From an uncultured Candidatus Saccharibacteria bacterium (GTDB taxonomy: Bacteria; Patescibacteriota; Minisyncoccia; Phycocordibacterales; UBA918), in assembly GCA_964425475.1 (NCBI GenBank), contig CAYRMF010000001.1:1-35850 (forward strand): a stretch of DNA of 35,850 nucleotides, read 5' to 3'. A program made the position numbers and the translations under genes. A model generated the notes under the pieces. It was not told the DNA's origin, made no database searches, and worked only from the letters and a program-made list of their open reading frames with translations. This document shows positions 4,789-35,850 of the stretch, piece after piece. The number at the start of each line of letters is the position of its first letter. Within the stretch, counting starts at the first letter, position 1.

Positions 4789-6168
4789 CTATTTTGAAGC
4801 TGTAGAGAGTGGCGATGTCTTGAGGAACGTCGCCTTGCTGAATTTGAGTACAACGTGCGTCCCCACGCCTTTAATGGATTCCACTGCAATAGTGCCTCCC
4901 ATGAGCTCAATGAGTTGCTTTGTAATCCACATACCGAGCCCTGTTCCAATCGTATTATCGACCTCAACATCTGCGACTCGGAAAAATGGTGCAAAGAGGT
5001 TTTTTTGATTTTCAGCACTAATGCCTGTTCCGGTATCTTTCACCCGTATTTCTACCATATCAACTCTATCCTCAAACGAAAGTGTAATACTCCCCGCTTT
5101 GGTGTACTTGATTGAATTGCTGACCAAATTGGTGAGTGCCTGATGGAACCGTTTACTATCAATGTACAAGTTGAGTGCTTGCGTGGGCGTATCTTGTCTA
5201 AGTTGTATCCCTTTTTCTTGTGCACTCACCTGCATTGCCTCAAGGACAGAGGTGATTATGTTTTGGATATCGGTATCCGCAGGTGCAAAGCTAAGTTTAC
5301 CCGAGTGAATCCGTGCAACATCGAGCAAATCATTCACGATGAGCACCAAGCGATCCGACGCCTCCCCGATATGTTCTGTATACGTACGGATTTCGTGGGG
5401 TACATCAGTGCGCTCGAGAATCATACTCGCATACCCGCGCATTGCAGTGAGTGGTGCTCTGAGCTCATGTGCAATCATATTGGTGAACATGTCCTTTGCC
5501 TGATTACTTCGTTTCGTCTCTGCGTAGAGCGCAGCATAATCAATAAGTCGTACATGCCGAATGATGAGTGCAAACACCACGAGGAGTAGCCCCGTTAGCC
5601 AAAAATATGCCTCCATGATCCCTCGTGAAAACTGAGCGTCTGTCTGTGCAAGTGAAGAGCGCGTAAAAATATAATATGTCTCTCCTCCCGACACCTCTAC
5701 CAGACGATAACTATTCCAATACCGAATACCGTCTACAGCATCTGGAATAATAAATGAGGAGTGGGGGTCAACATTTGCTGTACGATACATGTCAGGACTC
5801 TCAATGAAAGAACCGATATCATTGACTCTGAGTGACGCGACAACCCTCAGGTATGGTCCGTCTTCGATCACCACCTTGAAGTCGACTATATCGCTGTTCA
5901 ATTGCGCGATACGCGTAAGCTCATTCTGTATAGACACATCACCTTCACTGGTGGTTCGAATGATTGTTGAGAAGACATCTTGGAGGAGACCAATTCTATC
6001 CTTTTGAAGACGGTCCTGATTATTTCGCGCTATGTCTAGAAATTTTTGACCACTCACAAAAAAAGCTGTCGGTATGACGACGAGGAGGAGCAGTGTGGTG
6101 AGTATTTGTGGGTTATGTCTGACATACTCGTATCCCCGTCGCATCAAAATAACGGTCCTTTGTATCAT
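4789..6168 (-). CDS. Sensor histidine kinase (two TM segments, extracytoplasmic sensor, HisKA + HATPase_c)
   Basis: H-box HELRAPLTAMRGY, N-box LVSNSIKYT, G1 DTGTGI, G2 GTGLGM. TM segments at about aa 20-40 and 190-210. The start overlaps the upstream stop as ATGA (6165..6168). No response regulator lies in the window. Confidence 0.9.
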   Translation of the reverse strand: MIQRTVILMRRGYEYVRHNPQILTTLLLLVVIPTAFFVSGQKFLDIARNNQDRLQKDRIGLLQDVFSTIIRTTSEGDVSIQNELTRIAQLNSDIVDFKVVIEDGPYLRVVASLRVNDIGSFIESPDMYRTANVDPHSSFIIPDAVDGIRYWNSYRLVEVSGGETYYIFTRSSLAQTDAQFSRGIMEAYFWLTGLLLVVFALIIRHVRLIDYAALYAETKRSNQAKDMFTNMIAHELRAPLTAMRGYASMILERTDVPHEIRTYTEHIGEASDRLVLIVNDLLDVARIHSGKLSFAPADTDIQNIITSVLEAMQVSAQEKGIQLRQDTPTQALNLYIDSKRFHQALTNLVSNSIKYTKAGSITLSFEDRVDMVEIRVKDTGTGISAENQKNLFAPFFRVADVEVDNTIGTGLGMWITKQLIELMGGTIAVESIKGVGTHVVLKFSKATFLKTSPLSTASK

Positions 6169-19578: not shown

Positions 19579-20889
19579 CTATTCTACAAGAGTATCGAGA
19601 TCCGTATCATTGAGTACCGTTGAGGCATTATCCTTCCCTTCAATAGTGACCTCGTATGCTCTATTCTCAGTTGCATTCTGAATATACAACGATATAGCAA
19701 CAAACATCAGGATAAGTGAAGCGAGCGAGATGAAGAACCATTTATACTGTGTTACAAAATACCAAGCAGTTGCAAGTGTACTCTGGGACCTTTCTCCTGA
19801 AGTGAGCTGACTACGGAGATCAAGAACCCCTTTCTGAAGTGGTGCGGTTGCACGCGCATACGTGCGTTGCATTCTGAGTGGCTTGGCGTCATTTGTCTGC
19901 TCTTCTTCACGAGTAGCTCCACGTACCTCTACTCCAGCAAGTTCGAGCATGCGACGCACATATGCACGCACCATAAAGACAATAAGCCCAACAAAAACTG
20001 CGATGCTGAGTATTGTAATGAGCGTCCACTTCACCGGAATAACCCAAAAGTACGTTACGGCGTTTGTATCCGAGGAATTTTTCATATTACGCTCATCCCC
20101 GTAGGCGAGTGTCGCGACCGCTTTGTATCTACCAATGTCGGTGAAGCGGAAATCACTCTTCCATGAAAAAGAAAAGTCACGAATTGTCCCGGGGAGCACG
20201 TTGCCGAAGTGTGTTTGATAGTTTACCGGAATATTTCCACGCTCGGTGCCCCACATGTTTGTGATGACAATGTTCCCACGAGGAATGAGGTGCACATTCC
20301 CCTTATTTTCAAAACGAAGTGAAAACGATGCATCAGGCGTATCGAGGAATGAATCATTGACGCGAAACTCGCGAATTGTTCCCACTTCATGTACATCACC
20401 CTCAACGCGCAAAAACAAGAGTGACGTAACTGCTTGTGAAGTACGTACCGCGATTTCATTCGTTTCTTTTGGTGGTTCTGTAGAGATGAGGACCGCAGCA
20501 TAGTGTCCACCCGGTGAAGCATTTTGTGGTATTTCAGCAAAAAATTGAATGTCCTGTGTTTGCTCGGGTGGAATGGTAAAGGGGCCCTGTGGCATCTGTA
20601 TCCACTCACCAAATGTTGTGTTCTCTCCACCACTTTCAGCAAGCGTAAGAAATTTCCCCCTACCCTCCTCTCCAACAGCTTGAAAGTTGACCACCTCGGC
20701 GTACACAGTGAGTGGGTACGGGTTTCCATTGACCACCTTAATGCTACTCTGCCAAATATCACCAGGCATGACTGAAAGCTGAAAAAGTGGTGGTGTGACA
20801 CTGAGTACCTGCTTCTCGTCCGCATGCGCATATCCAGTGATGAAAAGCGCGTACGTAAAGACTGCAACAAAGAATATACTGTATTTCAT
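19579..20889 (-). CDS. DUF916/DUF3324-like cell-surface protein, paralogue 2 (436 aa; signal peptide, two beta domains, two TM segments)
   Basis: Signal peptide MKYSIFFVAVFTYALFITGYAHA. LSVTPPLFQLSVMPGDIWQSSIKVVNGNPYPLTVYAEV. W-I-x..PPEQTQDIQFFAEIPQNASPGGHYAAVLIS. Second domain ..FENKGNVHLIPRGNIVITN..GRYKAVATLAYG. ATGA overlap with the upstream gene. Confidence 0.6.
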   Translation of the reverse strand: MKYSIFFVAVFTYALFITGYAHADEKQVLSVTPPLFQLSVMPGDIWQSSIKVVNGNPYPLTVYAEVVNFQAVGEEGRGKFLTLAESGGENTTFGEWIQMPQGPFTIPPEQTQDIQFFAEIPQNASPGGHYAAVLISTEPPKETNEIAVRTSQAVTSLLFLRVEGDVHEVGTIREFRVNDSFLDTPDASFSLRFENKGNVHLIPRGNIVITNMWGTERGNIPVNYQTHFGNVLPGTIRDFSFSWKSDFRFTDIGRYKAVATLAYGDERNMKNSSDTNAVTYFWVIPVKWTLITILSIAVFVGLIVFMVRAYVRRMLELAGVEVRGATREEEQTNDAKPLRMQRTYARATAPLQKGVLDLRSQLTSGERSQSTLATAWYFVTQYKWFFISLASLILMFVAISLYIQNATENRAYEVTIEGKDNASTVLNDTDLDTLVE

Positions 20890-21920
20890 GATGGTTTGGT
20901 GAGATGAAGATCGTGACCTTTTGATGTACTGTGTCCATCACGTACGTGCACCGTGAGATGTTCGTGGTCATCATCCTGCATATCATCATCGAAGTAGCGA
21001 CGGTGGACATACCATGCACAGAGAGAAACAAAAATCACAAAACACGAAAGCATTATGATGAGCATGCGGAGCGGAAATATGTAAAAGAAACTGGTGTCTT
21101 GGAGCGAGGCACGTTGTGTCGAACCATACTCAACGGTGAGAAATGCTTTATATTTGCCAAATTTTCCTTCCGCAGGTATAGAGGCCGTGAAAGTGTGCTC
21201 TGCTTTGGGTTGAATACTTACGTTTTCAGTATTGACAGGAAGTGCTCCGACTTCCTTCCCCGTACTATCATAGAGAATAATCTCACCTGTTGGTGTCATA
21301 ACCTCATCACCCGGATTAGTAAACGTAAATGCTGCCGCTTGGTTGTCGCTACTCGTCACAAATCTCTCAACGATGAATTTTGAGAGCTTGAGAAATTCTC
21401 TGTTCTCTTCAGCAATCGTGATGGTAATGACCGTTCCGGGTGCTTGTCCATTTGCAACCTGCCGTTCTGCTTCATCGCGATTGCCACCATAACCAAAACC
21501 GATGAATGCGTGATAGGTGTTGGGTACTGGGGAGGGGTTCATGCGTATGGTAAGCGGAATCGTTTTCGACGTACCCGGTTGCAAATCAATTCCGAGACGA
21601 CTTATTTCAATCCATGAAGTCACCGACTTCGTACGGTCGCTCTCGACCGCTTGCTTGAATGCTTCGATGGTCCCTCCCTCTTTGAGGGATATTTCATTGA
21701 CACTTGGATACACCGTTACGGGGGTTTCGCCCGTGTTTGTGATTGTTATGTCTTTTGTAATGATGTCACGAGCGACTGCCTTGGTATCGATAACCATAGG
21801 CGAAACGGTATATGATATTGCAAAAACAAACCCCTTTGGATAAAAAAGGGAAACGCAGAGAAATGCAAACACTAAAAATTTAAAAGATTGGAACTGAAAC
21901 ATAGCGAATACGTGCTTCAT
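20886..21920 (-). CDS. DUF916/DUF3324-like cell-surface protein, paralogue 1 (about 344 aa; signal peptide, two beta domains, TM, acidic/His tail)
   Basis: The start is set at ATG 21920 (MKHVFAMFQFQSFKFLVFAFLCVSLFYPKGFVFA). Alternatives are 21932 and 21902, and all of them overlap the 3' end of the giant gene. YTVSPMVIDTKAVARDIITKDITITNTGETPVTVYPSV. SWIEISRLGIDLQPGTSKTIPLTI. Second domain FTFTNPGDEVMTPTGEIILYD..GKYKAFLTVEYG. Confidence 0.6.
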   Translation of the reverse strand: MKHVFAMFQFQSFKFLVFAFLCVSLFYPKGFVFAISYTVSPMVIDTKAVARDIITKDITITNTGETPVTVYPSVNEISLKEGGTIEAFKQAVESDRTKSVTSWIEISRLGIDLQPGTSKTIPLTIRMNPSPVPNTYHAFIGFGYGGNRDEAERQVANGQAPGTVITITIAEENREFLKLSKFIVERFVTSSDNQAAAFTFTNPGDEVMTPTGEIILYDSTGKEVGALPVNTENVSIQPKAEHTFTASIPAEGKFGKYKAFLTVEYGSTQRASLQDTSFFYIFPLRMLIIMLSCFVIFVSLCAWYVHRRYFDDDMQDDDHEHLTVHVRDGHSTSKGHDLHLTKPS

Positions 21921-24900
21921 ATAAGCCGGCATCTTGTAATGAACGAATAAACAACCGGTACACGATATCGGTCGTATCACTGACCGTAGGTTGTGAACTA
22001 TATGATACCTCATCTAGGGTCGATGTGCTCACACGCGCGTACGTGTCGATGGCAGAAAAACGTGTTGAGTCACCATTCAGCGTATCATCTCCAGTATGGT
22101 ATCCAAAACAGCTTTGTGCACCCACATCGCACCCGGAAGCCCAAGAAATGGGGGATGCATTCGTTCCTGTTACTGGTTTCATGTACGCACCATTGGTGCT
22201 CATCAAATCTCCATCCATGACCATAAATAGCTGATACCCCTGTGTGCCGTTTGTATCAATCGTAAGACGGTGTCCACCCTCACGCATCTGGTCGGCCACG
22301 AGCGTACCGAATGGAAGTGACGTTGGCGTGGTGTTGATATCGAGCGTTACACCCTCGATGACGGTCGATGAAGCGATGCCCGCCATGGTGAAGTTGAGGT
22401 GGGCACCCTCCGTCACCAATGATGGGTATGATTCGCTTGTATTTGTTGGTACGGGAATATTTTGCACAATATCAAACAATCTAAAGTAGTAGACGCGGTT
22501 GACGCGCGGGCCTGCTGACTGAATGGTAAACTCGTACTCAGCTGAGACGGTGTTATTGTGTCGATATCCCGTGAGTGCGCTCGGCGATTCGTTGTGTGTT
22601 CCACAGCCACTTCCCACACCAGCGACACACGATTCGGCATCAGAGAGTGTCACGGTAGAAATTTTTTCGTTATCGACTCCCCCACCATTTGCGTAGCACC
22701 ACGTTGAGGTGGCAAGGCACGTGCTCGTTGCGGTGACATCGAAAGCTTGTGTGAACGCTGGTGACTCTGAGTACTGCAGTTTGAATCGGACATCATCTCG
22801 TGACATGTTTTCGGTTTCTTTCACGGTCACGCGGAGTTTGAGCGCTTGGGTGTTTGCAATATCAACCGGTGCAACATTCTCAACGGCGAGCGTCGTCGTG
22901 GGAGTTTCGTCAATCTCATTATCATACCAACGCCAATTTTGTGTCTTTGGTGTAAAACTTGAGGTGCGTAACTGCGGATACTGTGCGTAGGTATCGAGTG
23001 GTGTATTGTCTGCCTCAACCATTCTGAAGCAGTAGAATGTTTCTCCCATGGCACCGTTCTGCTCGACAATCCAATCGTACTCAATATCGTCATCAACCGA
23101 GACCGCACTCTCATTCGCCTCGGTGTCATTCTGCTCCTCGAGCGTACCTAAGATATCAGACACAGAGAGTTTGAGTTCAGAGAGCGTCGTGCCGTCTGTC
23201 GTCGCTGTTGCGTTATAGCCACGCCAAATGGAACTCGATGCACTATTTCCCACCATCCGCCAGTCAGTTTCGGGAATAGCACTACACGAACTCACCATCG
23301 GACCATATTGGAGACGGAACGCTCTGACTCCCGCGGGGAAGGTTGCATTTTTTGCTTGAATCGACATGCGCATACGAATTCGCTCATTGCCGCCGAGTGG
23401 TTCATCTGCACCGGTGAGCACCGAATTTTCGCCTAGGTCTACTCCCCCCACGGGCCACGGGTCAGTGGGGGTGAGCTCATTATTATCGACATAGAATCGA
23501 TAGTAATTCTGTGTGAGTGCAAGACCAGCCGTTGGCCACTCCACAATTTCAGTCCTGAAGGTGAAGGTCGAACCAATATTACTTCTCCATATCTCATACG
23601 CGGTCGATGAGGCAATTGTGATGCCGGCGAGCGCTCGGGGAAATGTGGTATCAGCAACGGATGACCGTGCATTCGTAAAGATAGATGCGTTCGTGAGGTC
23701 ACTGAGCGTTTTTCCAACAGGAATGCTCAGCGTGAGTGGTGCTGTACCACCACTGAGCCACCCGCTTGATTTTGTCACCACCATAGCACCGTCTGTGGTC
23801 TGTGTGTTTTCAATAATCCACGCAACGGAGGTTTGACCGGATGGTGTTGTCGCACCCGTTTCAAGGTAGTAGGAAACGTACCCAATACTGGAAAGCCACA
23901 CCTCAGCTCCAAATTCATCGGTACCGTTGAGACCGGTAGTATTTCTTTTCTGGGTGTGTATGAACGTACGCGTGAGACTGCTCAGTGCAGAAATCGCTTC
24001 AGTCTCAGTAACTCCCGCAGTCGTATAGGTGTGCTGACTTCGTTGAATATTCCAGTTTGAGCCCGTAAACTCAACGACTGCATAGCTCACTTGGACTGCG
24101 TCCGAACCCGAAACACCTCTCCGAAAAATTGGTGCATTGAGAGATGCGTGCCACTCAGATGTTGAGAGGCCGGATTCATAATTTGTTGATGCTGTATCGG
24201 GATTCTGTTGTCCCGTGATGAATACCACCACTTTTGCATCATCGACAACATTCGAACGTACTGTACCTGTTGCACTCGTTGATCCGGTCCCATATCGGTG
24301 GAAGGTTTGTCCGCGGACAATCATTTCATTATCTCCTCCTGGGATGCCAATGTACTCTACAATCTCCCAACTCACTCGGGTCGTGCTCGAGATACCCGTA
24401 CGGGCAATGGTGACCGAGGTCATGATGTTGGAAGGATTTACGATATACGCAGTTGTGTTCGTAGCATTTTGAGCGAGGACGTTGCCTGTGTTATGCCCTG
24501 CTCCCGTATGTCCTATGTTCGTGATACGGATAAATGCACTCGTCGATGCAGAGGGGGTAATGTAGTCGACACCGGCAACAAGTGTCGTTGAGGTACTACT
24601 CGTCGCTATCGTCCTTGTGCCACGCTGTATCTCAAAATCTCTCTCCGGAGAAGTTGTGAGCTCGGGGTACTTGCTATACACATCGAGAGGAACGCCAGCT
24701 CCCGAGAGACGGAAACAGTATGTGGTGTTGTACCCGGCGCTCGTCGTCTGCTTGAGAGAAAATTCTGTTTCAATAAACTGCGTTGTGGTAAGTGCTGTAG
24801 ACGCAACCTGTGAAGAGGTGTCCTTTACTGCGCTGTTTGGGGTAAGGAATGTTGTGTTCTCATCGGTGACACCTCCGGCATTCACCGCGATATTGGTGGT

Positions 24901-27900
24901 GTCGCCTCCTTCCGTGAGATTGGTGGAGTTATACATGTCGAACGCACCGCCAACAGCCCCCACATCAGTCCACACATTTACCGCACTACAGGAAGAAATT
25001 TTGGTGCCGTACTCAAGTCGATATTCCGTTGCTTCTGCTGTAGTAGTGGTTGCCTCGTTGGACACCTGCATACGAAGTCTGAGTGGTGTTGCTTGAGAGA
25101 TGTTTGCAACCGCGGTGTCTTCCACTCCTCCTGTCGTTGAACTTGCGGTTGTCTCACTCCCGTTGTCGCTCCGCCAGTGATAGTGTGTCTGCGTATGTAC
25201 CGCGCCGATGAGTGCTGTCGACCCATTCATGTTACGCGCTATCTCCGGGCTCACACTTCCCCCACCTGAGATGAGTACATCCGCAGGGGGATTTGTAATT
25301 GCTATATCAATAGTTTCTCCATTCTGCGCACTCTGTGTTGTGTCGAGCACCGTATAGAGGCACATGGTTGCGGTCGTGGTGATGGTCACGGAGCCGGTGA
25401 ATGTCGATGTACCGTTCGCACTCGAAAACCCGTCGGTATCGGTGCTTCCAAACTGCGTGGCACCACCAACATACGATTCACTGCCACAATCGTACGGCGC
25501 TGAGGTGTCGAGATCGTAGTAGAGTTCGATGTTTTCAATATCACTCTGCCCATCAACGGTTCCCTGTTCAGAAATGGTAATACTTGTGACGTCGTGGCTC
25601 GTGCTGTTGTTGGTGATTACAAACGCACTTCCCACATAAAAATTCGTCGCAGGTAGGGTTGTGGTCGCCTGCTGTGAGGTCGTTGCGATATTCACCGCGA
25701 CATCCGCATTGATGTTTGCGCGCGGATAGTTCGTATAGGTGTGAAGTGGAGTACCCTCATCGGTAACACGAAAACAGTAGCTACTTCCATCTATCGCCGA
25801 TGAGGAAGCAACAATCGAGTATTCGAGTTCAACAAACTGTGAAGCGGTGAGTACGATATCATCTGTCTGTGATGAGGTATCGTTAATACCCCCATTTGGG
25901 GTGAGGAATGTGCTGTTCTCATCGGTGACTCCACCCACTCCAATAGCAATATTGGTCGTATTGCCCCCATCGAGCAAATTGGCAGAATCGTACATATCGA
26001 AGTGTCCACCGGCACTGCCGACATCTGTCCATCCACTCGCATCACCGCAGGCGCCAGAGTATTCCGCGTACTCTATGCGGTACTTCGTTGCGGGAGTGAC
26101 ACTACTTCCCTCGTTTGAGACCTCCATGCGAATGCGAGCGGGGGTCCCTTTGGGGAGGGCGAGGAGTGGTGTATCCTCAGCACCATTCGTTGTCGAGGTT
26201 GCTCCCGATTCGGTACCGCTGTCATCTCGCCAGTGATAGTGGGCAAGTGTCGGCATGTCATTGTATACGGATGTCGTGCCGGGAAGCGCCTGCACGGTGT
26301 TCGGGCTCGCAGTACTCCCAGCCACCACAACATCACTCGTTGGGTTCGTAACCTCGATATCAATTGTTGCATTACCTGGAGCACTATCTTGTACATCGAG
26401 TACCACGTAGAGACAGTATGCAGTGGTGGGACTAATCGTGAGCGTGGTACCACTAAACGAGGACACGCCATCTGCACCGGAAAATCCATCCGTATCGACC
26501 GAACCGAATTGCGCTTCACTCCCATCGTATGACTCACTCGCACAGTCGTACGGTGTAGCACTGTCTGCTTCGTAACGGAGTGTTGTATTTTTGAGGTGTG
26601 AAGAAGCATCAATAGTGCCCTTTTCAGTGAGCGTCACCCCCGTAACCGAAAACGTGTTCGTGTCTGAGGTATTGTAGAGCGTAATTGCTCCACCGATGTA
26701 CACGCCCGTAGTACCAGCGGACACTGAAGCGATTTGCGAACCGGTCGTCGGCTGTGCGGAGCTCGGCAAATCCACCATGGTTGCTCCATAGATATCGTCA
26801 TCGGTGTTATCAAACCAGCTCACATACATACGGTCAGCGCTCGACATCGGAAGATCAATGCCGTAGATATCGTCCGGATTTACCGTGTTCACCGGCCCCT
26901 GCTCATAGCCCCACGAATTCATCCCGTCTCGTGATCGCTTCCAAAGTACATTTGCCGTGAGAGCACTGTTTGCAATTCCTTGACCACTATATGCTACATA
27001 CACATCATCATTCGTAGAATCAAGTGCTACTGCGACGTTGGTGAGTCCCATGTTTGTGGTTGTAGCAGGATATGCCTTTGATATCCACGAGCCTCCGGTG
27101 TAGAGCGCTGTACGGATTTGGTCATCGGTACCCAACGTTGCATTGCGCGCAATGTAGGCGAGGTAGAGGTTCCCCGTAGAAGAACTGACAGCGACATCCA
27201 TACCCATGTCGTATGTTGCATTTTCAGGGGCTACAGCATCAATGGTAGTCCATGCAGCAGACCAGATAGTGTTATTCCATATTTTGTACCGAAGTACATC
27301 AGCTGAAATATCGCGGTTGATAACCATAATACTTCCGCCAGAGAGTGGCATGAGCATATTTTGGTCACTTGCTGCAGCATCGAGCGGATTTGCTCCTGTC
27401 TCCGACCAGTTACCCGCCACATTACACGAAATAGTACACTCGACTATATACGAATCAGGCCCGGTGGTACCGTCGTTCGATACCGCGTAGAGTGTGCCGT
27501 CAGTCCCACGCGTCACGGAGACAAAGTTTTCTGCTTCCGTGAGAGACCCTCCCTGACCGGCAGTCATGTTTGTCGGTGTACCTCCCGAGAGGAGTGTATC
27601 ATCGCTCGTATTGAGACGGTTGTACCAGAGGTCATCGGCACTCGCATCGGCGGTCACGATGTGGATACTCGAACTTGCTGATGCAATACCCGGTGTCCAC
27701 TTGTCGTACCACACGGTCACCTGGTGACAGTCTGTCTGTGAGTCAACGGTGGTTGTCGCACTCCATGTGCTACCACCATCAGTCGTCTTCCTGTACACAC
27801 AGTATCCTCCCACATCTCGGAAGAATTTATATCCCACCTGATCGCTCGTGAAGACACTCTGTGAACCCGACTGAAGGTGCGAGGTACCTGCGGCCGAGGT

Positions 27901-29265
27901 TGTCGGGTCAATGGTTGATTGCGTGTATGCATCACTGCTGTTTATCTCATCGAATGCACTCGTCGTGACACGAACACCGTCTGAAATATCGAGTAACGTA
28001 TCTCCATAGATATCATCGTCGGTATTATCAAACCATGATACATAGAGTCGCGTGTCGCTCATAATATTCATATCTATGCCATAGATATCATCCGCTGATG
28101 TATTGATTGGCCCATACTCGTAGCTCCACGTACTCATACCGTCTGTTGATTTTCGCCAGTACACATTTCCTGATGCAAGAGTCGCGAGTGCCGTACGCGC
28201 ACTGTAGGCAACGTAGATGTCGTCACTCGAGGTATCGAGACCTATGGCGACGTTCGTGAGACCTTTCTCACTATAGCGCACCACCTGTTTCTTCACGGTC
28301 CACGAACCACCGGAGTATACAGCCGTGCGGATTTGGTCGTCCAAGCCGAGTGCGGTACTGCTCGCGATGTACGCGAGGTAAATGTCTCCGGTCGTCGGGT
28401 GCACGGTCATAGCCATACCAACGTCATAGGTAGTGTTGTCCGGCGCGTACGTGTCAAAAGTTGTGGTCGCAACATCCCATGCACCCGTGCCGTTATTCCA
28501 CACTTTACTCCCGATGTCTTCAAGCCCAATGTCACGATGAATAGCGATGATGTTTCCGTTTGGGAGTGGTGCAAGTATGGCGTAATTGTTGGTTAGTCCA
28601 AAAGGGTTTGTTCCTGCCTCTGACCAGTTTCCCGCAGTGTTGCAGTTTGTTGAACACCGCACCACATATGAATCAGAGGCATCAATACTCGCTACATATA
28701 TTGTTCCATTGGTGGCCTTCGTTATGGACACTTGGTTGGCACCCGTTGTGAGTGTCCCACCCTGCGCCGTTGCAACACTCACCGGCGTGTATCCGAGAAG
28801 AAGCGTGTCGTCATTGGTATCGAGGCGGTTGTACCACGCATCATCGGGGTTGGCGTCAATTGTTGCGATGTGTATCTTCGTGCCAGTGTCCCCTGGTGTC
28901 CACCTGTCATACCAGACCGATATTGCGAGACAGTCTACCTGCGCATCGACGGTTGTTGTAGAGCTCCACGTTGTTCCCCCATCGGAAGTTTTGCGGTACA
29001 CGCAGTAACCGGGTGCATCAACAAAAAATTTGTATCCGACTTGGTCGCTCACAAAGACTGTTTGTGCACCCGACTGAAGGTGGTACGTGGGGGTAATGAG
29101 CGCATTAGAATCAATCGCAGACTGTGCAGCTTCTGCAGTGGGAATCTCATCGTATCCGAAGCGAATAAGTCCATCACCAAAACTTCCGACAAGAATCGTA
29201 ATGATAAGGTACAGTGAAAAATACACCCTCCCCTTCCTGAGTTTTCCGAATAACCCTCCTTTCAT
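21880..29265 (-). CDS. Giant secreted or anchored surface protein (2461 aa): 2 Asp-box propeller-like modules, repeated Ig-like and jelly-roll-like modules, WxL-like C-terminal domain
   Basis: An uninterrupted 7.4-kb ORF. N-terminal signal anchor VYFSLYLIITILVGSF. Asp-box motifs TSDGGTTW, STDGMSTW, TTDGGSTW and SRDGMNSW. The internal duplications are listed as separate features. Its own promoter lies at 29351..29359. Confidence 0.85.
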   Translation of the reverse strand: MKGGLFGKLRKGRVYFSLYLIITILVGSFGDGLIRFGYDEIPTAEAAQSAIDSNALITPTYHLQSGAQTVFVSDQVGYKFFVDAPGYCVYRKTSDGGTTWSSTTTVDAQVDCLAISVWYDRWTPGDTGTKIHIATIDANPDDAWYNRLDTNDDTLLLGYTPVSVATAQGGTLTTGANQVSITKATNGTIYVASIDASDSYVVRCSTNCNTAGNWSEAGTNPFGLTNNYAILAPLPNGNIIAIHRDIGLEDIGSKVWNNGTGAWDVATTTFDTYAPDNTTYDVGMAMTVHPTTGDIYLAYIASSTALGLDDQIRTAVYSGGSWTVKKQVVRYSEKGLTNVAIGLDTSSDDIYVAYSARTALATLASGNVYWRKSTDGMSTWSYEYGPINTSADDIYGIDMNIMSDTRLYVSWFDNTDDDIYGDTLLDISDGVRVTTSAFDEINSSDAYTQSTIDPTTSAAGTSHLQSGSQSVFTSDQVGYKFFRDVGGYCVYRKTTDGGSTWSATTTVDSQTDCHQVTVWYDKWTPGIASASSSIHIVTADASADDLWYNRLNTSDDTLLSGGTPTNMTAGQGGSLTEAENFVSVTRGTDGTLYAVSNDGTTGPDSYIVECTISCNVAGNWSETGANPLDAAASDQNMLMPLSGGSIMVINRDISADVLRYKIWNNTIWSAAWTTIDAVAPENATYDMGMDVAVSSSTGNLYLAYIARNATLGTDDQIRTALYTGGSWISKAYPATTTNMGLTNVAVALDSTNDDVYVAYSGQGIANSALTANVLWKRSRDGMNSWGYEQGPVNTVNPDDIYGIDLPMSSADRMYVSWFDNTDDDIYGATMVDLPSSAQPTTGSQIASVSAGTTGVYIGGAITLYNTSDTNTFSVTGVTLTEKGTIDASSHLKNTTLRYEADSATPYDCASESYDGSEAQFGSVDTDGFSGADGVSSFSGTTLTISPTTAYCLYVVLDVQDSAPGNATIDIEVTNPTSDVVVAGSTASPNTVQALPGTTSVYNDMPTLAHYHWRDDSGTESGATSTTNGAEDTPLLALPKGTPARIRMEVSNEGSSVTPATKYRIEYAEYSGACGDASGWTDVGSAGGHFDMYDSANLLDGGNTTNIAIGVGGVTDENSTFLTPNGGINDTSSQTDDIVLTASQFVELEYSIVASSSAIDGSSYCFRVTDEGTPLHTYTNYPRANINADVAVNIATTSQQATTTLPATNFYVGSAFVITNNSTSHDVTSITISEQGTVDGQSDIENIELYYDLDTSAPYDCGSESYVGGATQFGSTDTDGFSSANGTSTFTGSVTITTTATMCLYTVLDTTQSAQNGETIDIAITNPPADVLISGGGSVSPEIARNMNGSTALIGAVHTQTHYHWRSDNGSETTASSTTGGVEDTAVANISQATPLRLRMQVSNEATTTTAEATEYRLEYGTKISSCSAVNVWTDVGAVGGAFDMYNSTNLTEGGDTTNIAVNAGGVTDENTTFLTPNSAVKDTSSQVASTALTTTQFIETEFSLKQTTSAGYNTTYCFRLSGAGVPLDVYSKYPELTTSPERDFEIQRGTRTIATSSTSTTLVAGVDYITPSASTSAFIRITNIGHTGAGHNTGNVLAQNATNTTAYIVNPSNIMTSVTIARTGISSTTRVSWEIVEYIGIPGGDNEMIVRGQTFHRYGTGSTSATGTVRSNVVDDAKVVVFITGQQNPDTASTNYESGLSTSEWHASLNAPIFRRGVSGSDAVQVSYAVVEFTGSNWNIQRSQHTYTTAGVTETEAISALSSLTRTFIHTQKRNTTGLNGTDEFGAEVWLSSIGYVSYYLETGATTPSGQTSVAWIIENTQTTDGAMVVTKSSGWLSGGTAPLTLSIPVGKTLSDLTNASIFTNARSSVADTTFPRALAGITIASSTAYEIWRSNIGSTFTFRTEIVEWPTAGLALTQNYYRFYVDNNELTPTDPWPVGGVDLGENSVLTGADEPLGGNERIRMRMSIQAKNATFPAGVRAFRLQYGPMVSSCSAIPETDWRMVGNSASSSIWRGYNATATTDGTTLSELKLSVSDILGTLEEQNDTEANESAVSVDDDIEYDWIVEQNGAMGETFYCFRMVEADNTPLDTYAQYPQLRTSSFTPKTQNWRWYDNEIDETPTTTLAVENVAPVDIANTQALKLRVTVKETENMSRDDVRFKLQYSESPAFTQAFDVTATSTCLATSTWCYANGGGVDNEKISTVTLSDAESCVAGVGSGCGTHNESPSALTGYRHNNTVSAEYEFTIQSAGPRVNRVYYFRLFDIVQNIPVPTNTSESYPSLVTEGAHLNFTMAGIASSTVIEGVTLDINTTPTSLPFGTLVADQMREGGHRLTIDTNGTQGYQLFMVMDGDLMSTNGAYMKPVTGTNASPISWASGCDVGAQSCFGYHTGDDTLNGDSTRFSAIDTYARVSTSTLDEVSYSSQPTVSDTTDIVYRLFIRSLQDAGLYEARIRYVSVPIF
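22411..23508 (-). repeat. Two further copies of the part-2 (jelly-roll-like) submodule (aa ~1920-2102 and ~2110-2285)
   Basis: YYRFYVDNNE..RIRMRMSIQ..FRLQYG..SSCS..DWRMVG..FYCFRMVEADNTPLDTYAQYPQLRT and NWRWYDNEID..LKLRVTVKE..FKLQYSES..YYFRLFDIVQNIPVP..SYPSLVT share the same motif order as the HYHWR modules. Confidence 0.65.
24652..26733 (-). repeat. Tandem duplication of a ~340-aa two-part module (aa ~845-1185 and ~1196-1538)
   Basis: Part 1 carries ..PYDC.SESY.G...QFGS.DTDGFS.. and ..ATIDI.[VI]TNP..DV. Part 2 runs from HYHWR.D to ..YR[IL]EY...C...W[TD]VG..GG.FDMY.S.NL..GG.TTNIA...GGVTDEN[ST]TFLTPN.. and ends ..YCFR[VL]...G.PL..Y..YP. Confidence 0.8.
26767..29112 (-). repeat. Tandem duplication of a ~380-aa Asp-box (BNR) propeller-like module inside the giant ORF (aa ~52-428 and ~452-833)
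   Basis: The two copies align end to end by eye, from HLQSG[AS]Q[TS]VF.SDQVGYKFF to YVSWFDNTDDDIYG. In the best stretch (HLQSG...WTPG) I count 48 of 64 identical residues. Confidence 0.8.
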
Positions 29266-29382: not shown

Positions 29383-29447
29383 AAATGAGCGACATCGTAA
29401 GTCGCTCATTTTTGAGTGTTATGAGCGACTTACGATGTCGCTCATTT
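29383..29447. repeat. Perfect 27-nt inverted repeat (29383..29409 / 29421..29447) whose arms are each a 9-bp-stem hairpin
   Basis: The left arm is AAATGAGCGACATCGTAAGTCGCTCAT. The right arm ATGAGCGACTTACGATGTCGCTCATTT is its exact reverse complement. The spacer is 11 nt. The stem ATGAGCGAC/GTCGCTCAT is identical in both arms, and the 7-nt loop is inverted. Confidence 0.9.
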
Positions 29448-31274: not shown

Positions 31275-32021
31275 CTACTTGCGGAAAGAGTCAGCGAGTA
31301 GAATTGAAAAGTCTTTAAACGTCATACGACCATCCCCATCAAAATCAAACAGTGCATTTCTCGTAAACCACGCTGACATAAATACACTGATGTCGGAAAG
31401 ATCGACATCCCCATCTCCATCAGTATCCGTCACAATAGAGACCGTCGCTTCGCCCGAGATAACCCCATCATCACCCAAAACAGCTATCACTGTCTGATTA
31501 TCAGCGAGCGATGGCGTAACACTCACTTCAGTACCTTTTCCATCTCCAGCAACAAGTGATGAGCCACTGACAAAAATACGTGCAGTACCGGCTTCTATTG
31601 CCCTCACTTTAATACGCGCGATGGTATGCTCGCCTATGAAACCTTTTCGAAATGTTCCACCACGAAGGTATATCTTCCCCGCTTTTGCAGAGGGTTCTTC
31701 AGTCCATAGAGTAATCACTGAGGTGCCGGTATCAATACCGAGCACTTGTATGGTGTCTTCAGGGTACCCAATCACCAAGTCAACGGCATTGATTGACACA
31801 TGCGCAGTGACATCGACATGTATATAAAACTCTTGATCTTGAGTCACCGTCTGTGCACTTGTACTTATGGTTACATAGGATGCATTTTCCCCAATAATCG
31901 ATGCAAGACCAGCTAAAAGTGCAGCAACAATAACAGCAGGAAACGCGTACTTGACTGTCGTGTACTGTGTTTCACTGTGTGAAGGAAAAAGTGCTTTCCA
32001 AAGTATTTTAAACATACTCAC
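31275..32021 (-). CDS. Membrane-anchored cohesin-like protein with C-terminal dockerin-like EF-hand pair (248 aa)
   Basis: TM FPAVIVAALLAGLASII. Cohesin-like module ..EFYIHVDVTAHVSINAVDLVIGYPEDTIQVLGIDTGTSVITLWTEEPS..GKIYLRGG..IARIKVRAIEAGTARIF. C-terminus DTDGDGDVDLSDISVFMSAWF..FDFDGDGRMTFKDFSILL. The start is GTG 32021, which overlaps the upstream stop as GTGA, or ATG 32015. Confidence 0.65.
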   Translation of the reverse strand: MSMFKILWKALFPSHSETQYTTVKYAFPAVIVAALLAGLASIIGENASYVTISTSAQTVTQDQEFYIHVDVTAHVSINAVDLVIGYPEDTIQVLGIDTGTSVITLWTEEPSAKAGKIYLRGGTFRKGFIGEHTIARIKVRAIEAGTARIFVSGSSLVAGDGKGTEVSVTPSLADNQTVIAVLGDDGVISGEATVSIVTDTDGDGDVDLSDISVFMSAWFTRNALFDFDGDGRMTFKDFSILLADSFRK

Positions 32022-32677
32022 TGAACTAATTGCGAGCGCAACTCATCAATACGCTGATTGTGCACCACAAGCAATTCATTGATTTCTTGTGCCTGTTGCA
32101 CCAGTTGCGTGACATGCTCACTTTGAGATGATTCACCGGTAATGAGTGAAGCAATAATTTCGTCCTGAATACGTGCTTGATCACCAAGTCCGGTACTCCG
32201 TCCCTTTTCAAGTTCAATAAGTGTATTCCACTCGGTGCGCTGGAATGAGTCAAAGTCTTCTCCACTGAGGAGAGCAAGTGTGTCAAGAAGTGTATTGTAG
32301 TGGACAATTTCACGCTCAAGTTTTGCAACCATGAGTGCTTTACGTTCTGCATAAAACATACCGCAACTCTCGGAAAGTGTCTGCACTGCGATGAGCTCTC
32401 GCATTGAAAGAGCTCCGAGATTGCCGAGGAGATTCTCATACTCATCACGACGTGGACAATCACGAACAATGCTCTGAATAATACTATCGGCACCATTACT
32501 GTCAGTTATCTCGGCCAATTGTGCCAAGTAGGATCTTTCTTCTTCAAGTTGCGTACGAAGAAGTGTTTCAAGTGCTCGCTGATTGTGGTGGACGTACCAC
32601 GTACCAATCACAAAAACAAGCGCGACGGAGAAGAGGACAAATGCGATGTAGAGGTGTTTTTCAAGTGAGTTTTTCAT
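32018..32677 (-). CDS. Membrane-anchored coiled-coil protein (219 aa), unknown function
   Basis: N-terminal TM LYIAFVLFSVALVFVIGTWYV, then a helical, heptad-like sequence rich in E/L/Q/R. It is tightly packed between cohesin-like genes. Confidence 0.6.
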   Translation of the reverse strand: MKNSLEKHLYIAFVLFSVALVFVIGTWYVHHNQRALETLLRTQLEEERSYLAQLAEITDSNGADSIIQSIVRDCPRRDEYENLLGNLGALSMRELIAVQTLSESCGMFYAERKALMVAKLEREIVHYNTLLDTLALLSGEDFDSFQRTEWNTLIELEKGRSTGLGDQARIQDEIIASLITGESSQSEHVTQLVQQAQEINELLVVHNQRIDELRSQLVQ

Positions 32678-32683
32678 ACAGTA

Positions 32684-34414
32684 TTATGAAACAACGCGTT
32701 CAATGTCTTCAATCTCCTTCCGAATCTTTCCCTGTGCCGACTTCAGATCATTTTCTATACGCTCAATGAGCACAAGTTCTGCTTTTGTGAGCTTACCCTT
32801 GCGTGATTCCTTGAGCTCACCAACATTCACATCAAGATTTTTAATAATCTCCGCAAATTCACGTGAGAGTCGGTCTTCGGCTTCAAATGTTTCTTTGCGA
32901 ACAGTGCGCTTCCAGCGCGCGAGACGGTGCCAGAGGTACCACGTGCCAAAGATGAGTACAATGAGGAGTGACACAATAGGGACAACTACCGAGAGAAAAT
33001 TGATGACGACCGTGCCCGCAGCAACGTACCCAGGAACTTCGGCAATTATTTTAATTGTGTCTGACTTTTCACTGACACTTCCGAATGCATCTCGTGCAAC
33101 GGCAGAAATAGTATACACACCCGTGTCGAAGGGAGTATCAGGAATGAAGGTGAACTCACCCTCTGCGTTACTCTGTACCACATAAGGATTACCTGTCCCC
33201 TCCTCCGCGACACTGAGGATAGTATTATCACTCGCGCGCACCACTTCAATTGTTACTGTTGCATTCGGACGTGTTTTCCCTTTAATGGCAGGAATAACTT
33301 CTGTGTTGATGCGTGTCGGATACTCAGTGAAGATAGGTTTCTCGAATGCATCAATGGTGAGCGAATAGCTCGCAACTGCTGTGTTACCCGCACTATCAAA
33401 CGCCTCAACTGAGATAGTGTGATAGCCCGGCAAGAGTGATTCGAGTGTGTACTGTTGTTTTTGTTCGGTATCAGTGAAGACGATCGGTTCCTTACCATCA
33501 ATTTGAATTTTATACTCGATAATTGGTGATGTGTCATCGAATGCAAATATGAGTACCTTTGCAGGATTCGTTGCGTCAAGGGGTTTTTCGGTGATAGTGA
33601 AGTTTTTTGGACCCTCCGTATCAACGGCGAGTTTGTACTCAGCAATCCGTCCCCATCCATCAGCATTTTTGAATTGCAAGTGGAAGTATGAAATTCCTTC
33701 GGGCAAATCCTCAAGTGTCTTCTTCGTAAGTGCTTCTTCATACACTTTTGTCGGTACGGTGCCACTTGTCCGATCGAGGAGCATTCGTACGGCAGTTACG
33801 CCTGCAGGCACTGTCCAACTCAGTGTTGCGTTTTTCTGCTTGTACCATGCAGTTTGATCAGGGTGTGTACTCGATGTTATTTTTGGTGCTTGCGGAGTGT
33901 TTGCAGGCGGTATGTACTCAGGTGCTGGAGTCTCCCCTTTCGCAGCAATCGTGAAGGAGCCACTGCCCATAGAGGTGAGCACATTGGTGCCCATACCGTC
34001 AGCAGCGAGCACGGAACCGCTTGAAAAAGTGACTTTTGGTGTCCCCGCTCCAAGCGGTCTGAAGGTTATGGAAACAATCGTTCCAGCTCCACCCTTATAC
34101 CCCGTGGGTGAACCACCACCGAATGAAACCGTCCCTGCGCTGTTTGAAAAAGTTGGCTCTTCTGTCCAAAGATTAAAAATGGAGCTTGCGCGTGTGACAC
34201 TGACCACCTGAAGTTCGCGCGTATTGAACGTAAGTTTGCCATCCGCCGCATTCACTGATTTCCCTTCGGTATTGAGCACAACCGATACACTGAACGGTGT
34301 TCCTGCTGTATACACTCCGGTGCTTGGACTTACCTTGAGCGTCGCAGCATCAGCACTATGCGCAACGAAAAAAAGAAACAGTCCGATTACCCACAATGTT
34401 TTGTTACTATTCAT
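32684..34414 (-). CDS. Cohesin-like surface protein with Ig-like repeats, C-terminal TM and cytoplasmic coiled-coil tail (576 aa)
   Basis: The start is set at ATG 34414 (MNSNKTLWVIGLFLFFVAHSADA / ATLKVSP). The longer ORF-track version overlaps the upstream gene. Cohesin-like ATLKVSPSTGVYTAGTPFSVSVVLNTEGKSVNAADGKLTFNTRELQVVSV..IFNLWTEEPTFSNSAGTVSFGGG..VTFSSGSVLAADGMGTNVLT. Also THPDQTAWY..GISYFHLQFKNADGW. TM VVPIVSLLIVLIFGTWYLW. Confidence 0.7.
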   Translation of the reverse strand: MNSNKTLWVIGLFLFFVAHSADAATLKVSPSTGVYTAGTPFSVSVVLNTEGKSVNAADGKLTFNTRELQVVSVTRASSIFNLWTEEPTFSNSAGTVSFGGGSPTGYKGGAGTIVSITFRPLGAGTPKVTFSSGSVLAADGMGTNVLTSMGSGSFTIAAKGETPAPEYIPPANTPQAPKITSSTHPDQTAWYKQKNATLSWTVPAGVTAVRMLLDRTSGTVPTKVYEEALTKKTLEDLPEGISYFHLQFKNADGWGRIAEYKLAVDTEGPKNFTITEKPLDATNPAKVLIFAFDDTSPIIEYKIQIDGKEPIVFTDTEQKQQYTLESLLPGYHTISVEAFDSAGNTAVASYSLTIDAFEKPIFTEYPTRINTEVIPAIKGKTRPNATVTIEVVRASDNTILSVAEEGTGNPYVVQSNAEGEFTFIPDTPFDTGVYTISAVARDAFGSVSEKSDTIKIIAEVPGYVAAGTVVINFLSVVVPIVSLLIVLIFGTWYLWHRLARWKRTVRKETFEAEDRLSREFAEIIKNLDVNVGELKESRKGKLTKAELVLIERIENDLKSAQGKIRKEIEDIERVVS

Positions 34415-34418
34415 ATAT

Positions 34419-35435
34419 TTATTGTTCTTTTGAATTTTCGTTTCCTTCCAATCGTTTCTTTCGTTTCCAAAGTACAAAGAACACCAGTACCACGATACAT
34501 AGCAATACCCCACCGAGCACACTGATCAGTATCAGCATATCGGATGAGATGCTTCTGAGTGCGGTATCGGGAACCAAAGTCACAATACGAACATTTCCAG
34601 CTTTATCGAGTGCTTTTACACGGATGGTGCTGTTCAGTGTTTGGTCTTTGAGTACGTATGGACTTTCTGTCTGTACCCATGGAGCATCGGCACGTCCCCA
34701 CTTAAATGCATTAAATTCAGAAAATGGTTCCTCCATAACCTCATAGTGATCGATACCGGACTGTTTATCACTTGCGTTAAATACGATGAAATACTCACCA
34801 CTGAATGCATAATCGTCCTTCGTAAGCGTGATAGCAAAATCAGAGGGAAGCTCTGTATCACTTTGTACACTCTCACGCCATGCATCTTGTATGCTCTGGC
34901 CTACAGTATCATCGAGCGTGATGATTGCATCCCGGAGTGTTAACGGTGCTGGTGTACCGTAGCCATCATGGAGCAGTACCTGTGAAACTTCATCAAGCCA
35001 TACATGTGGGGTCTTGTTTGTATTTGCACCTCCAATACTTAACCCCGGTGACTTAAACACAATTTGCAAAATAACATTCGTGAGTGATGGATCACCTGCG
35101 ATACGTCCACAGTATCCGCCAGGAACACCGCCAGCAAAATGTATTGTTCGGTTTACTTCATCAATAGTCGGGTCTTCTACCCAGATATTGAGAATAGAAT
35201 TACCTCGTGAAATATCAACCGCAATAATGCTCTCATCATAGTGAATGAGCGCATCGAAAGTATTCACACATTCTCCCTCATCAGTATCAATACGCAAATC
35301 AACCACAACACTATCTCCGTGATGAATATTTACTGCACTGGGATCAAAATACAGTGTTGCCGCATGAGTGTCTGGTACACCAAAAGAGAATGCGCATACA
35401 GAGAAAAAACAAAACGCAAGAAATGTACGTATCAT
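34419..35435 (-). CDS. Cohesin-like surface protein with C-terminal TM anchor (338 aa)
   Basis: Signal peptide MIRTFLAFCFFSVCAFSFGVPDTHA / ATLYFDP. Cohesin-like ..GDSVVVDLRIDTDEGECVNTFDALIHYDESIIAVDISRGNSILNIWVEDPTIDEVNRTIHFAGGVPGG. C-terminal TM LILISVLGGVLLCIVVLVFFVLW followed by a basic tail. Confidence 0.7.
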   Translation of the reverse strand: MIRTFLAFCFFSVCAFSFGVPDTHAATLYFDPSAVNIHHGDSVVVDLRIDTDEGECVNTFDALIHYDESIIAVDISRGNSILNIWVEDPTIDEVNRTIHFAGGVPGGYCGRIAGDPSLTNVILQIVFKSPGLSIGGANTNKTPHVWLDEVSQVLLHDGYGTPAPLTLRDAIITLDDTVGQSIQDAWRESVQSDTELPSDFAITLTKDDYAFSGEYFIVFNASDKQSGIDHYEVMEEPFSEFNAFKWGRADAPWVQTESPYVLKDQTLNSTIRVKALDKAGNVRIVTLVPDTALRSISSDMLILISVLGGVLLCIVVLVFFVLWKRKKRLEGNENSKEQ

Positions 35436-35456: not shown

Positions 35457-35560
35457 AACGAAATCAGCGTAAAAGCTATCTGTACACAGAGGTGGAAGTA
35501 TTCATTGTGGCGTTCCATATCTCAGTACTATCGGAGGTACTCTGAACGTAAGACAAATGA

Positions 35561-35591
35561 AATCCCTTACAGGGACTGTTCAGGTTGTATG
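35561..35591 (+). repeat. Copy 1 of a 31-nt repeat AATCCCTTACAGGGACTGTTCAGGTTGTATG
   Basis: Read directly. It contains overlapping small palindromes TCCCT-tac-AGGGA and ACAG-gga-CTGT, and it ends in ATG. Confidence 0.9.
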
Positions 35592-35652
35592 CTAGTTTCT
35601 TCCTTTGGTCGAAACTATCGACAACCTCGATTAAAGTGGTCTATACCACTTT

Positions 35653-35683
35653 AATCCCTTACAGGGACTGTTCAGGCTGTATG
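35653..35683 (+). repeat. Copy 2 of the 31-nt repeat (30/31 identical to copy 1)
   Basis: AATCCCTTACAGGGACTGTTCAGGCTGTATG, 92 bp after copy 1. Confidence 0.9.
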
Positions 35684-35821
35684 ATAGTTTATTTCGTTTT
35701 ACTCATAAACTATCGACTGACAATCGAGTGAACAAAATAAATAAACACTTTTATTTATTTTTGAGCGAGTGCTGTCAGGAAGCTTTGCTTACAGCCTCTT
35801 TTTCATGTGCCCCGCACATGA

Positions 35822-35850
35822 AATCCCTTACAGGGACTGTCCAGATTGTA
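35822..35850 (+). repeat. Copy 3 of the repeat, truncated by the window end (27/29 identical to copy 1)
   Basis: AATCCCTTACAGGGACTGTCCAGATTGTA, 169 bp after copy 2. It is preceded by a 9-bp-stem hairpin TTCATGTGC-ccc-GCACATGAA. Confidence 0.85.

Follow-up and report, generated by a model that had tools for sequence, protein, structure and literature searches.

Three transmembrane-anchored cohesin modules and a compact dockerin in a conserved patescibacterial gene cluster: a probable non-cellulosomal surface assembly

Patescibacteria, or Candidate Phyla Radiation (CPR) bacteria, account for a sizeable part of bacterial diversity, and most of them have not been cultivated. In silico analysis of a 35,850-nucleotide (nt) stretch of DNA from an uncultured Candidatus Saccharibacteria bacterium (contig CAYRMF010000001.1 of assembly GCA_964425475.1, positions 1 to 35,850; hereafter the window) indicated a row of four closely spaced genes, labeled A to D, in which A, B and D each encode a cohesin module and D, in addition, a C-terminal dockerin module (Table 1). 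An initial annotation of this sequence had placed the modules in a single operon. Gaps of 2-6 nt between A and B, B and C, and C and D fit translational coupling and make such an operon plausible for A-B-C-D on sequence grounds. E lies ~140 nt beyond D, and a strong terminator-like hairpin parts E from F. The proposed membrane anchoring of the three modules was borne out by hydropathy and flanking charges. A and B carry cleavable-looking signal peptides with an AXA site just before A-T-L (THA↓ATL in A and ADA↓ATL in B), and both have a C-terminal transmembrane helix followed by a basic tail. In D, a conserved 22-amino acid (aa) N-terminal peptide precedes a signal anchor and the module begins right after the transmembrane helix (SYVTIS); because of this N-terminal signal anchor, the rest of D would lie outside the membrane. 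The most likely start of B is ATG 34414, and an identical 576-aa product exists in a database record. For D, the length of 248 aa given at first has to be revised, as its start is most likely ATG 32015, giving 246 aa as in all orthologs, and not GTG 32021.

The three ~125-aa modules lie at the coordinates first given and are paralogous, as had been noted from the sequence, with BLASTP E-values of 5e-16 (A-B), 2e-16 (B-D) and 7e-6 (A-D). The invariant columns of the three-module alignment include N33, D36, W60, E62, P64 and G77-G78, so that the N-A-x-D, W-x-E-x-P and GG elements of the motif set first described for them hold throughout, whereas the A-T-L of the mature N-terminus is confined to A and B. 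In every related genome the three paralog types fall into separate orthologous groups, so the triplication must be old. A-type and D-type modules are linked by hhalign (93%, E=2.9e-7), and a pair of cysteines (C31/C84, in GEC...GYCGR) is invariant among the orthologs of the A-type module. Against the Pfam family Cohesin (PF00963, gathering score 24.1 bits) the B module scored 27.3 bits, covering positions 8-125 of the 139 profile positions, and at E<=0.01 the family was matched by 11 of 46 D orthologs, the ortholog at the distantly related locus L005 reaching 19.7 bits. A profile built from all three modules and searched against the PDB returned cohesins as its only matches (1g1k at E=0.002, 2vn5, 5lxv and 4dh2). 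An AlphaFold2 model of D, computed with 46 orthologs as input, had predicted local distance difference test (pLDDT) values of 75-90 across the cohesin module and showed the cohesin-type β-sandwich (jelly-roll) fold, the structural evidence coming from D alone. Foldseek placed cohesins at ranks 1-39 for this model, the best being 2vo8 (E=2.4e-8, target-normalized TM-score 0.83, root-mean-square deviation 2.7 Å). The cohesin assignment first proposed is supported by these independent tests.

Several results weigh against this assignment. Scoring with Pfam, the check suggested in the initial annotation, succeeded for the B cohesin but not for the other modules: A reached only 12.6 bits, and no PF00963 match at all was obtained for the D of the window in the Pfam scan. 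The A-type profile used by itself retrieved no PDB cohesin, and direct sequence searches of the PDB with D, A and B gave nothing useful beyond Big_13-like matches for B. These sub-threshold scores of A and D are what could be held to favor a chance or low-complexity artefact, with no real cohesin or dockerin present; that explanation is refuted by the pairwise E-values, which go down to 2e-16, by hundreds of length-conserved orthologs, by the cohesin and dockerin fold matches and by strict synteny (see below). Together, these data indicated that the modules of A, B and D all have the cohesin fold and constitute a subfamily of divergent cohesins, marked by a W-x-E-x-P / GG signature of its own.

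The C-terminal segment of D contains two calcium loops, DTDGDGDVDLSD and DFDGDGRMTFKD, each followed by a helix, and here a rival explanation for the whole system has to be weighed. According to it, the cohesin-fold modules are generic β-sandwiches whose partner is not a dockerin but, for example, peptidoglycan, a glycan, a ligand on the host or a further protein of the cluster, the tail of D is a Ca2+-stabilized or Ca2+-sensing EF-hand-like element, and the two do not bind each other. The scores leave room for this. The D of the window obtained 19.5 bits for Pfam Dockerin_1 (PF00404), just under the gathering score of 22.9 bits, and 20.9 bits for NCBIfam dockerin_GC, for which the cut-off is 29; EF-hand hidden Markov models (HMMs) do as well, EF-hand_1 giving 22.2 bits on the same protein. 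Across all 46 D orthologs EF-hand_1 and EF-hand_6 equal Dockerin_1 in score, with EF-hand_1 found in 46 of 46 and Dockerin_1 in 44 of 46 at E<=0.01 (best 1.9e-7), and the top PDB sequence matches of the C-terminal profile of D are EF-hand calcium-binding proteins (2jnx, E=8e-9). On the side of the cohesins, A and D fall under the Pfam cut-off, the S-[IV]-x-[NT]-[IL]-W-x-E-x-P / GG motif of the three modules is missing from the aligned cellulosomal cohesins, and CLIPPER (9ifr), a non-cohesin adhesin domain, is given at rank 30 of the fold matches of the D model.

Layout and homology decide where the HMM scores are ambiguous. The EF-hand matches, in HMM and PDB searches alike, span a single loop and its exiting helix, whereas the PDB dockerins 2y3n_B, 4fl4_A, 1daq, 2mte and 5n5p_B align over both segments of D. 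An AlphaFold model of the last 63 residues has a loop-helix-loop-helix course (coil, H23-35, coil, H50-62 by DSSP), that is, tandem 12-residue Ca2+ loops each followed by a helix and lacking an entering helix; the four helices, with entering helices, of a canonical EF-hand pair were not found, as two helices are predicted and coil or strand precedes loop 1. Dockerins made up 8 of the 9 Foldseek matches of this model (6kg9, 6kgf_B, 2y3n_B, 3ul4_B and others, TM-scores 0.5-0.6) and no EF-hand protein was among the 9. In 35 sequences, with identities down to 38%, the calcium ligands at positions 1, 6 and 12 do not vary in either loop; position 5 is fixed in loop 2 and almost fixed in loop 1. The distant ortholog at L005 clears the Dockerin_1 cut-off with 25.3 bits. 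Counting against the assignment are the E-values of the Foldseek matches, which are weak (0.23-7.8), the confidence of the dockerin part, with pLDDT 40-60 in the full-length D model and ~64-76 (mean 66.9) when modeled alone, and the spacing of the segments. The initial annotation had called the layout canonical; two Ca-loop and helix segments are indeed present, but the second loop starts 27 residues after the first, 44 residues align to 51 Pfam profile positions, and canonical dockerins have an inter-loop linker that is longer by 4-7 residues. We conclude that the C-terminus of D is a genuine, compact dockerin variant with two Ca2+ loop-helix segments, and that D, as first proposed, is a single protein carrying both a cohesin and a dockerin; the weak fold match, the orthologs and the homology to a second dockerin, described next, all bear on this.

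The genetic context of the D family was then compared by tblastn at 24 related loci (designated by L numbers), which share 38-97% identity with the window. The family is large, with 514 close homologs of conserved length (~246 aa) and 869 representatives at E<=1e-10 among 1.84 billion proteins; among the 150 matches listed, most are ~220-260 aa long and align across both modules. None of the database sources names these proteins. Orthologs of A share 42-71% identity with it when taken from distinct relatives; for L012/L013, which are near-identical to the window, the value is 87%. In these Patescibacteria, which have genomes of the Paceibacteria type, the gene order is colinear wherever contigs reach, W(617)-Z(307)-X(378)-Y(380)-A-B-C-D-E-F-G-H, with D always co-encoded with A and B and with E in synteny at all loci. 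The sole exception is the L010/L011 lineage (73% identical in D), which lacks C, has other genes upstream of Y, without W, Z and X there, and leaves a gap of only 60 nt between B and D (L010 9940-10001, L011 3034-3095); C is therefore dispensable for the rest of the cluster. X, a secreted protein of ~370-378 aa, has a signal peptide along with DUF4215 Cys-rich repeats and Big_6 Ig-like domains; its C-terminal dockerin is canonical and passes Pfam (25.7 bits against the Dockerin_1 cut-off of 22.9). Ten distinct loci extend far enough upstream of A, and nine of these, one being the near-identical L012, carry X ~2 kb upstream of it. The dockerins of X and D are homologous over both segments (hhalign 96.8%, E=2e-10) with a 4-residue linker deletion in D, and both X helices read DFSIL[LV]F, similar to DFSILLA in the second helix of D. 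W-Y are missing from the window only because the contig breaks off within an array of repeats, 415 nt upstream of A; L012, which has 89% DNA identity to the window over 4.7 kb, carries W-Z-X-Y at that place, and X in this genome is predicted to be encoded just beyond the end of the window. With X in the cluster, the unit becomes one of three cohesins (A, B and D) and two dockerins (X and D), which likely changes the wiring.

Conservation, measured as mean pairwise identity across nine genomes, was highest in the docking modules. The X dockerin reached 86% compared with 62% in the rest of X, and the D dockerin 67% compared with 48% in the D cohesin; the cohesins of A (60%, rest of A 56%) and B (64%, rest of B 51%) are also above the remainder of their proteins. 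The dockerins are thus the most conserved parts of the proteins that carry them, and the pattern fits conserved protein-protein interfaces. Both the A cohesin and protein C have a conserved pair of cysteines, which suggests extracellular disulfides and fits an extracellular location. Along with these data, the presence of a Pfam-passing dockerin in the same conserved cluster, homologous to the D tail over both segments, together with the missing entering helix and the missing EF-hand matches noted above, speaks against the view of non-docking β-sandwiches beside an EF-hand-like tail, which we consider a possible but rather unlikely account.

We therefore favor, as the probable explanation, a non-cellulosomal, transmembrane-anchored cohesin-dockerin surface assembly. 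Ca2+-dependent cohesin-dockerin pairing would link the subunits into a membrane-tethered platform in which D may act as an adaptor, its dockerin plugging into the cohesin of A, of B or of another D, while X could be captured by the cohesins that remain. Such a platform might organize and present the non-enzymatic surface proteins F, E, G and H, and its purpose may be to shape the envelope or to attach the cell to a host. A caution is that for many cohesin-like modules outside cellulosomes no dockerin partner is known (Peer et al. 2009, as cited in PMC10066038 and PMC9012536). Two precedents outside cellulosomes concern attachment: non-cellulosomal cohesin/dockerin proteins of anaerobic methanotrophic (ANME) archaea have been proposed to attach proteins to the cell surface (PMC9012536), and giant dockerin-rich open reading frames (ORFs) of Omnitrophota have been proposed as adhesins (PMC10066038).

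Because D carries both modules, it might also bind mainly itself, either in cis, as a closed and auto-inhibited form, or in trans, as head-to-tail homopolymers or a two-dimensional membrane lattice, leaving A and B to serve only X or other dockerin proteins. Recognition between a cohesin and a dockerin of one protein is documented for Ruminococcus bromii Amy4, whose cohesin recognizes its own dockerin (PMC4611034); the linker of ~30 residues in D (aa 165-197) is enough for either geometry, and the transmembrane-cohesin-dockerin architecture (~245 aa) is strongly conserved in length. In the full-length model, though, the dockerin has no confident placement relative to the cohesin (its low pLDDT is given above; predicted TM-score (pTM) 0.53), and among the five docking modules conservation is lowest in the D cohesin, a poor fit to a co-evolving self-pair; A and B, moreover, accompany D at every locus. 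For the first two of these reasons self-association of D by itself is not favored, and we hold it to be improbable. A further and more ambitious reading extends the favored assembly: the cluster would be a Patescibacteria-specific surface organelle in which membrane-anchored plug-and-socket modules of the cellulosome type assemble a giant adhesin complex without enzymes (F, E, X and others) and keep it in place, with D as a polymerizing adaptor, for attachment of these ultra-small, host-dependent cells to their hosts or as an envelope lattice. We regard this as unlikely, if less so than a D that binds only itself.

Compared with known systems, the cluster is predicted from its sequences to work most like the non-cellulosomal cohesin/dockerin systems, represented by an Archaeoglobus fulgidus cohesin (2xdh), the Clostridium perfringens GH33/GH84 cohesins (2vo8, 2jh2) and the ANME surface proteins (PMC9012536). 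As in those, the proteins have no relation to cellulose degradation and carry single cohesin modules, dockerin modules or both, no multi-cohesin scaffoldin is present, and the proposed role is to attach proteins to one another or to the cell surface; 2vo8, 2jh2 and 2xdh are within the four best fold matches of the D module. Unlike those systems, the anchoring here is by transmembrane helices, three cohesin and two dockerin proteins are fixed in a CPR-specific 12-gene cluster, and no enzyme, toxin or solute-binding cargo is detectable in the cluster. Amy4 resembles D in having both modules on one protein, and its cohesin binds its own and other dockerins, allowing multimerization (PMC4611034), but it is a secreted 1356-aa GH13 amylase that docks on a sortase-anchored scaffoldin, whereas D, a membrane protein of 246 aa, lacks a catalytic module, and its binding is a prediction.

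With the cellulosomal scaffoldins of Clostridium thermocellum (CipA/OlpA-C/SdbA), Acetivibrio cellulolyticus (ScaA/ScaB) and Ruminococcus flavefaciens (ScaA/ScaB/ScaE) the cluster shares the cohesin jelly-roll and the Ca2+-binding double loop-helix dockerin, and some adaptor and anchoring scaffoldins carry both as anchor-cargo adaptors; the fold matches include cellulosomal types (4dh2, 3ul4, 5n5p and 4fl4). It differs from them in having a single cohesin per protein (A, B and D) and no tandem array, transmembrane-helix anchoring, with neither SLH nor a sortase signal (LPXTG) seen in the Pfam scan, no glycoside hydrolase, carbohydrate-binding module (CBM) or X-module partners, a dockerin with a short linker, and the W-x-E-x-P / GG signature of its cohesins. 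The observation that no glycoside hydrolase cargo is in sight was upheld and extended from the window to the whole 12-gene cluster: neither a glycoside hydrolase nor a CBM family was found in a scan of 21 window ORFs and of the upstream cluster genes of the relatives. The system is thus not a cellulosome, because a multi-cohesin scaffoldin, enzymes and an SLH or sortase anchor were all looked for and none was found.

We found no cohesin/dockerin system of Parcubacteria/CPR described in the literature. An essential dockerin protein, SEML1_0315, is known from Southlakia epibionticum (PMC10633639); it was considered as an ortholog and set aside, being 927 aa long and in a different gene context. 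What the present analysis offers is a strictly conserved, unannotated 12-gene surface cluster of which three cohesins and two dockerins are the only recognizable parts, and, with them, a testable map of six candidate dockerin-cohesin pairs for a CPR surface complex that is opaque in other respects. If the favored assembly is real, cohesin-dockerin assembly would extend to transmembrane-anchored, enzyme-free complexes, and if the organelle reading held as well, cohesin-dockerin chemistry would rank as a core principle by which CPR cell surfaces are built. Should binding prove specific and orthogonal, the 50-aa dockerin and the 125-aa cohesins could serve as new affinity pairs.

Table 1. Coordinates of genes, modules and other elements. 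Features lie on the minus strand of the 35,850-nt window unless stated; gene letters A-H are those of this analysis, and positions with an L number refer to the related locus so designated.
Feature	Position	Strand	Description
Gene A	34419..35435	-	338 aa; signal peptide, N-terminal cohesin-like module, Ig-like middle, C-terminal transmembrane helix, short basic tail
Cohesin-like module of A	34986..35360	-	aa 26-150
C-terminal transmembrane helix of A	34470..34538	-	hydropathy 3.2 over 19 residues; WKRKKR next
Gene B	32684..34414	-	576 aa; signal peptide, cohesin, Ig-like/Big_13 stalk, transmembrane helix, ~85-aa cytoplasmic coiled-coil-like tail
Cohesin module of B	33968..34345	-	aa 24-149
Transmembrane helix of B	32945..33007	-	hydropathy 2.87
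Gene C	32018..32677	-	219 aa; N-terminal transmembrane helix and helical domain with conserved Cys pair; no known family
Gene D	31275..32015	-	246 aa; conserved N-terminal cytoplasmic peptide, signal-anchor transmembrane helix, cohesin, ~30-aa linker, dockerin
Signal-anchor transmembrane helix of D	31890..31946	-	from hydropathy; probably N-in, C-out by the positive-inside rule (flanking charges)
Cohesin module of D	31512..31880	-	aa 46-168
Dockerin-type module of D	31278..31430	-	Ca loop 1 and helix, Ca loop 2 and helix
Ca loop 1 of D	31392..31427	-	DTDGDGDVDLSD
Ca loop 2 of D	31311..31346	-	DFDGDGRMTFKD
Gene E	29475..~31133	-	start uncertain, ORF extends to 31262; signal/anchor, acidic low-complexity regions, β-propeller repeats
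Terminator-like hairpin between E and F	29383..29411	-	strong, 11-bp stem
Gene F	21880..29265	-	2461 aa; giant surface protein, duplicated N-terminal BNR-like region, repeats, C-terminal ~180-aa domain
N-terminal region of F	26686-29148	-	~400-aa internal duplication, aa ~50-440 and 450-850
C-terminal domain of F shared with Y	21880-22434	-	~180-185 aa
Gene G	20886..22013	-	start uncertain; signal peptide, two Ig-like domains, transmembrane helix
Gene H	19579..20889	-	G paralog; signal peptide, two Ig-like domains, transmembrane helix
Leader repeat upstream of A	35554..35850	not assigned	three copies, 36-46 nt, hairpin-containing
916-aa protein	6165..8915	-	between uvrB and a histidine kinase gene
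X copies in relatives	L012 3278-4414; L005 3662-4762		also at L001, L004, L007, L009, L020, L022 and L023
Y of relatives	L012 4971-6113		380 aa
Z of relatives	L012 2352-3275		G/H paralog
Repeats matching the leader repeat	L012 6150-6460		broken by a run of N

In C, the conserved Cys pair lies in DC...C[GA]xF. E matched NCBIfam beta_prop_Msarc (49.6 bits) and a TolB propeller (25 bits), both sub-threshold, and F matched BNR_2, a sialidase-like propeller, at 19.3 bits, below its cut-off; for the duplicated N-terminal part of F no PDB sequence relative was found. The C-terminal domain of F is shared with Y of the relatives and ends in Y-x-A-x-[LI]-x-Y-x-x-x-P-x-F. Its 178 homologs (Paceibacterota, Kaiserbacteria) all lack annotation, no PDB sequence relative was found, and Pfam annotates none of the 120 homologs listed. 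G, H and the upstream Z are paralogs of the same architecture, G and H being 25% identical; G scored 21.1 bits for WxLIP_PGBD/DUF916 against a cut-off of 27.3, and H had no match. In Gram-positive WxL/Csc clusters, DUF916/WxLIP membrane proteins occur with small and large WxL proteins, and these clusters are not known to include a cohesin or dockerin. The likeness to such clusters is architectural only, consisting of the Ig-like, transmembrane-anchored G, H and Z beside a small Y and a giant F that share a C-terminal domain. It serves as a lead, and membership was rejected, since no WxL match was obtained in F or Y with Pfam even at E<=10, the shared domain has neither a PDB relative nor a Pfam annotation among the homologs listed, the WxLIP_PGBD score of G is sub-threshold and H has none.

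Upstream of A, at the end of the contig, the copies of the leader repeat are spaced 92 and 169 nt apart, with the core AATCCCTTACAGGGACTGT containing a TCCCT/AGGGA hairpin and with other palindromes close by. Matching repeats occur at L012 and none at the more distant loci; the array matched no tRNA and no Rfam family at the gathering score, and might be a regulatory element or a repeat element that breaks assemblies.

The other genes of the window include uvrA/B/C, tgt, an FKBP gene and a histidine kinase gene, among others. The 916-aa protein encoded between uvrB and the histidine kinase gene has Big_13 and thrombospondin-type-3-like calcium repeats (DTDKDGISDYDE, DTDGDGVIDGTE) and is a further calcium-binding protein of the surface. 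It was considered as a possible dockerin protein elsewhere in the window, being the only place where further D-x-[DN]-x-[DN]-G sites occur, and these sites proved to be repeats of the thrombospondin type 3 (TSP3) kind.

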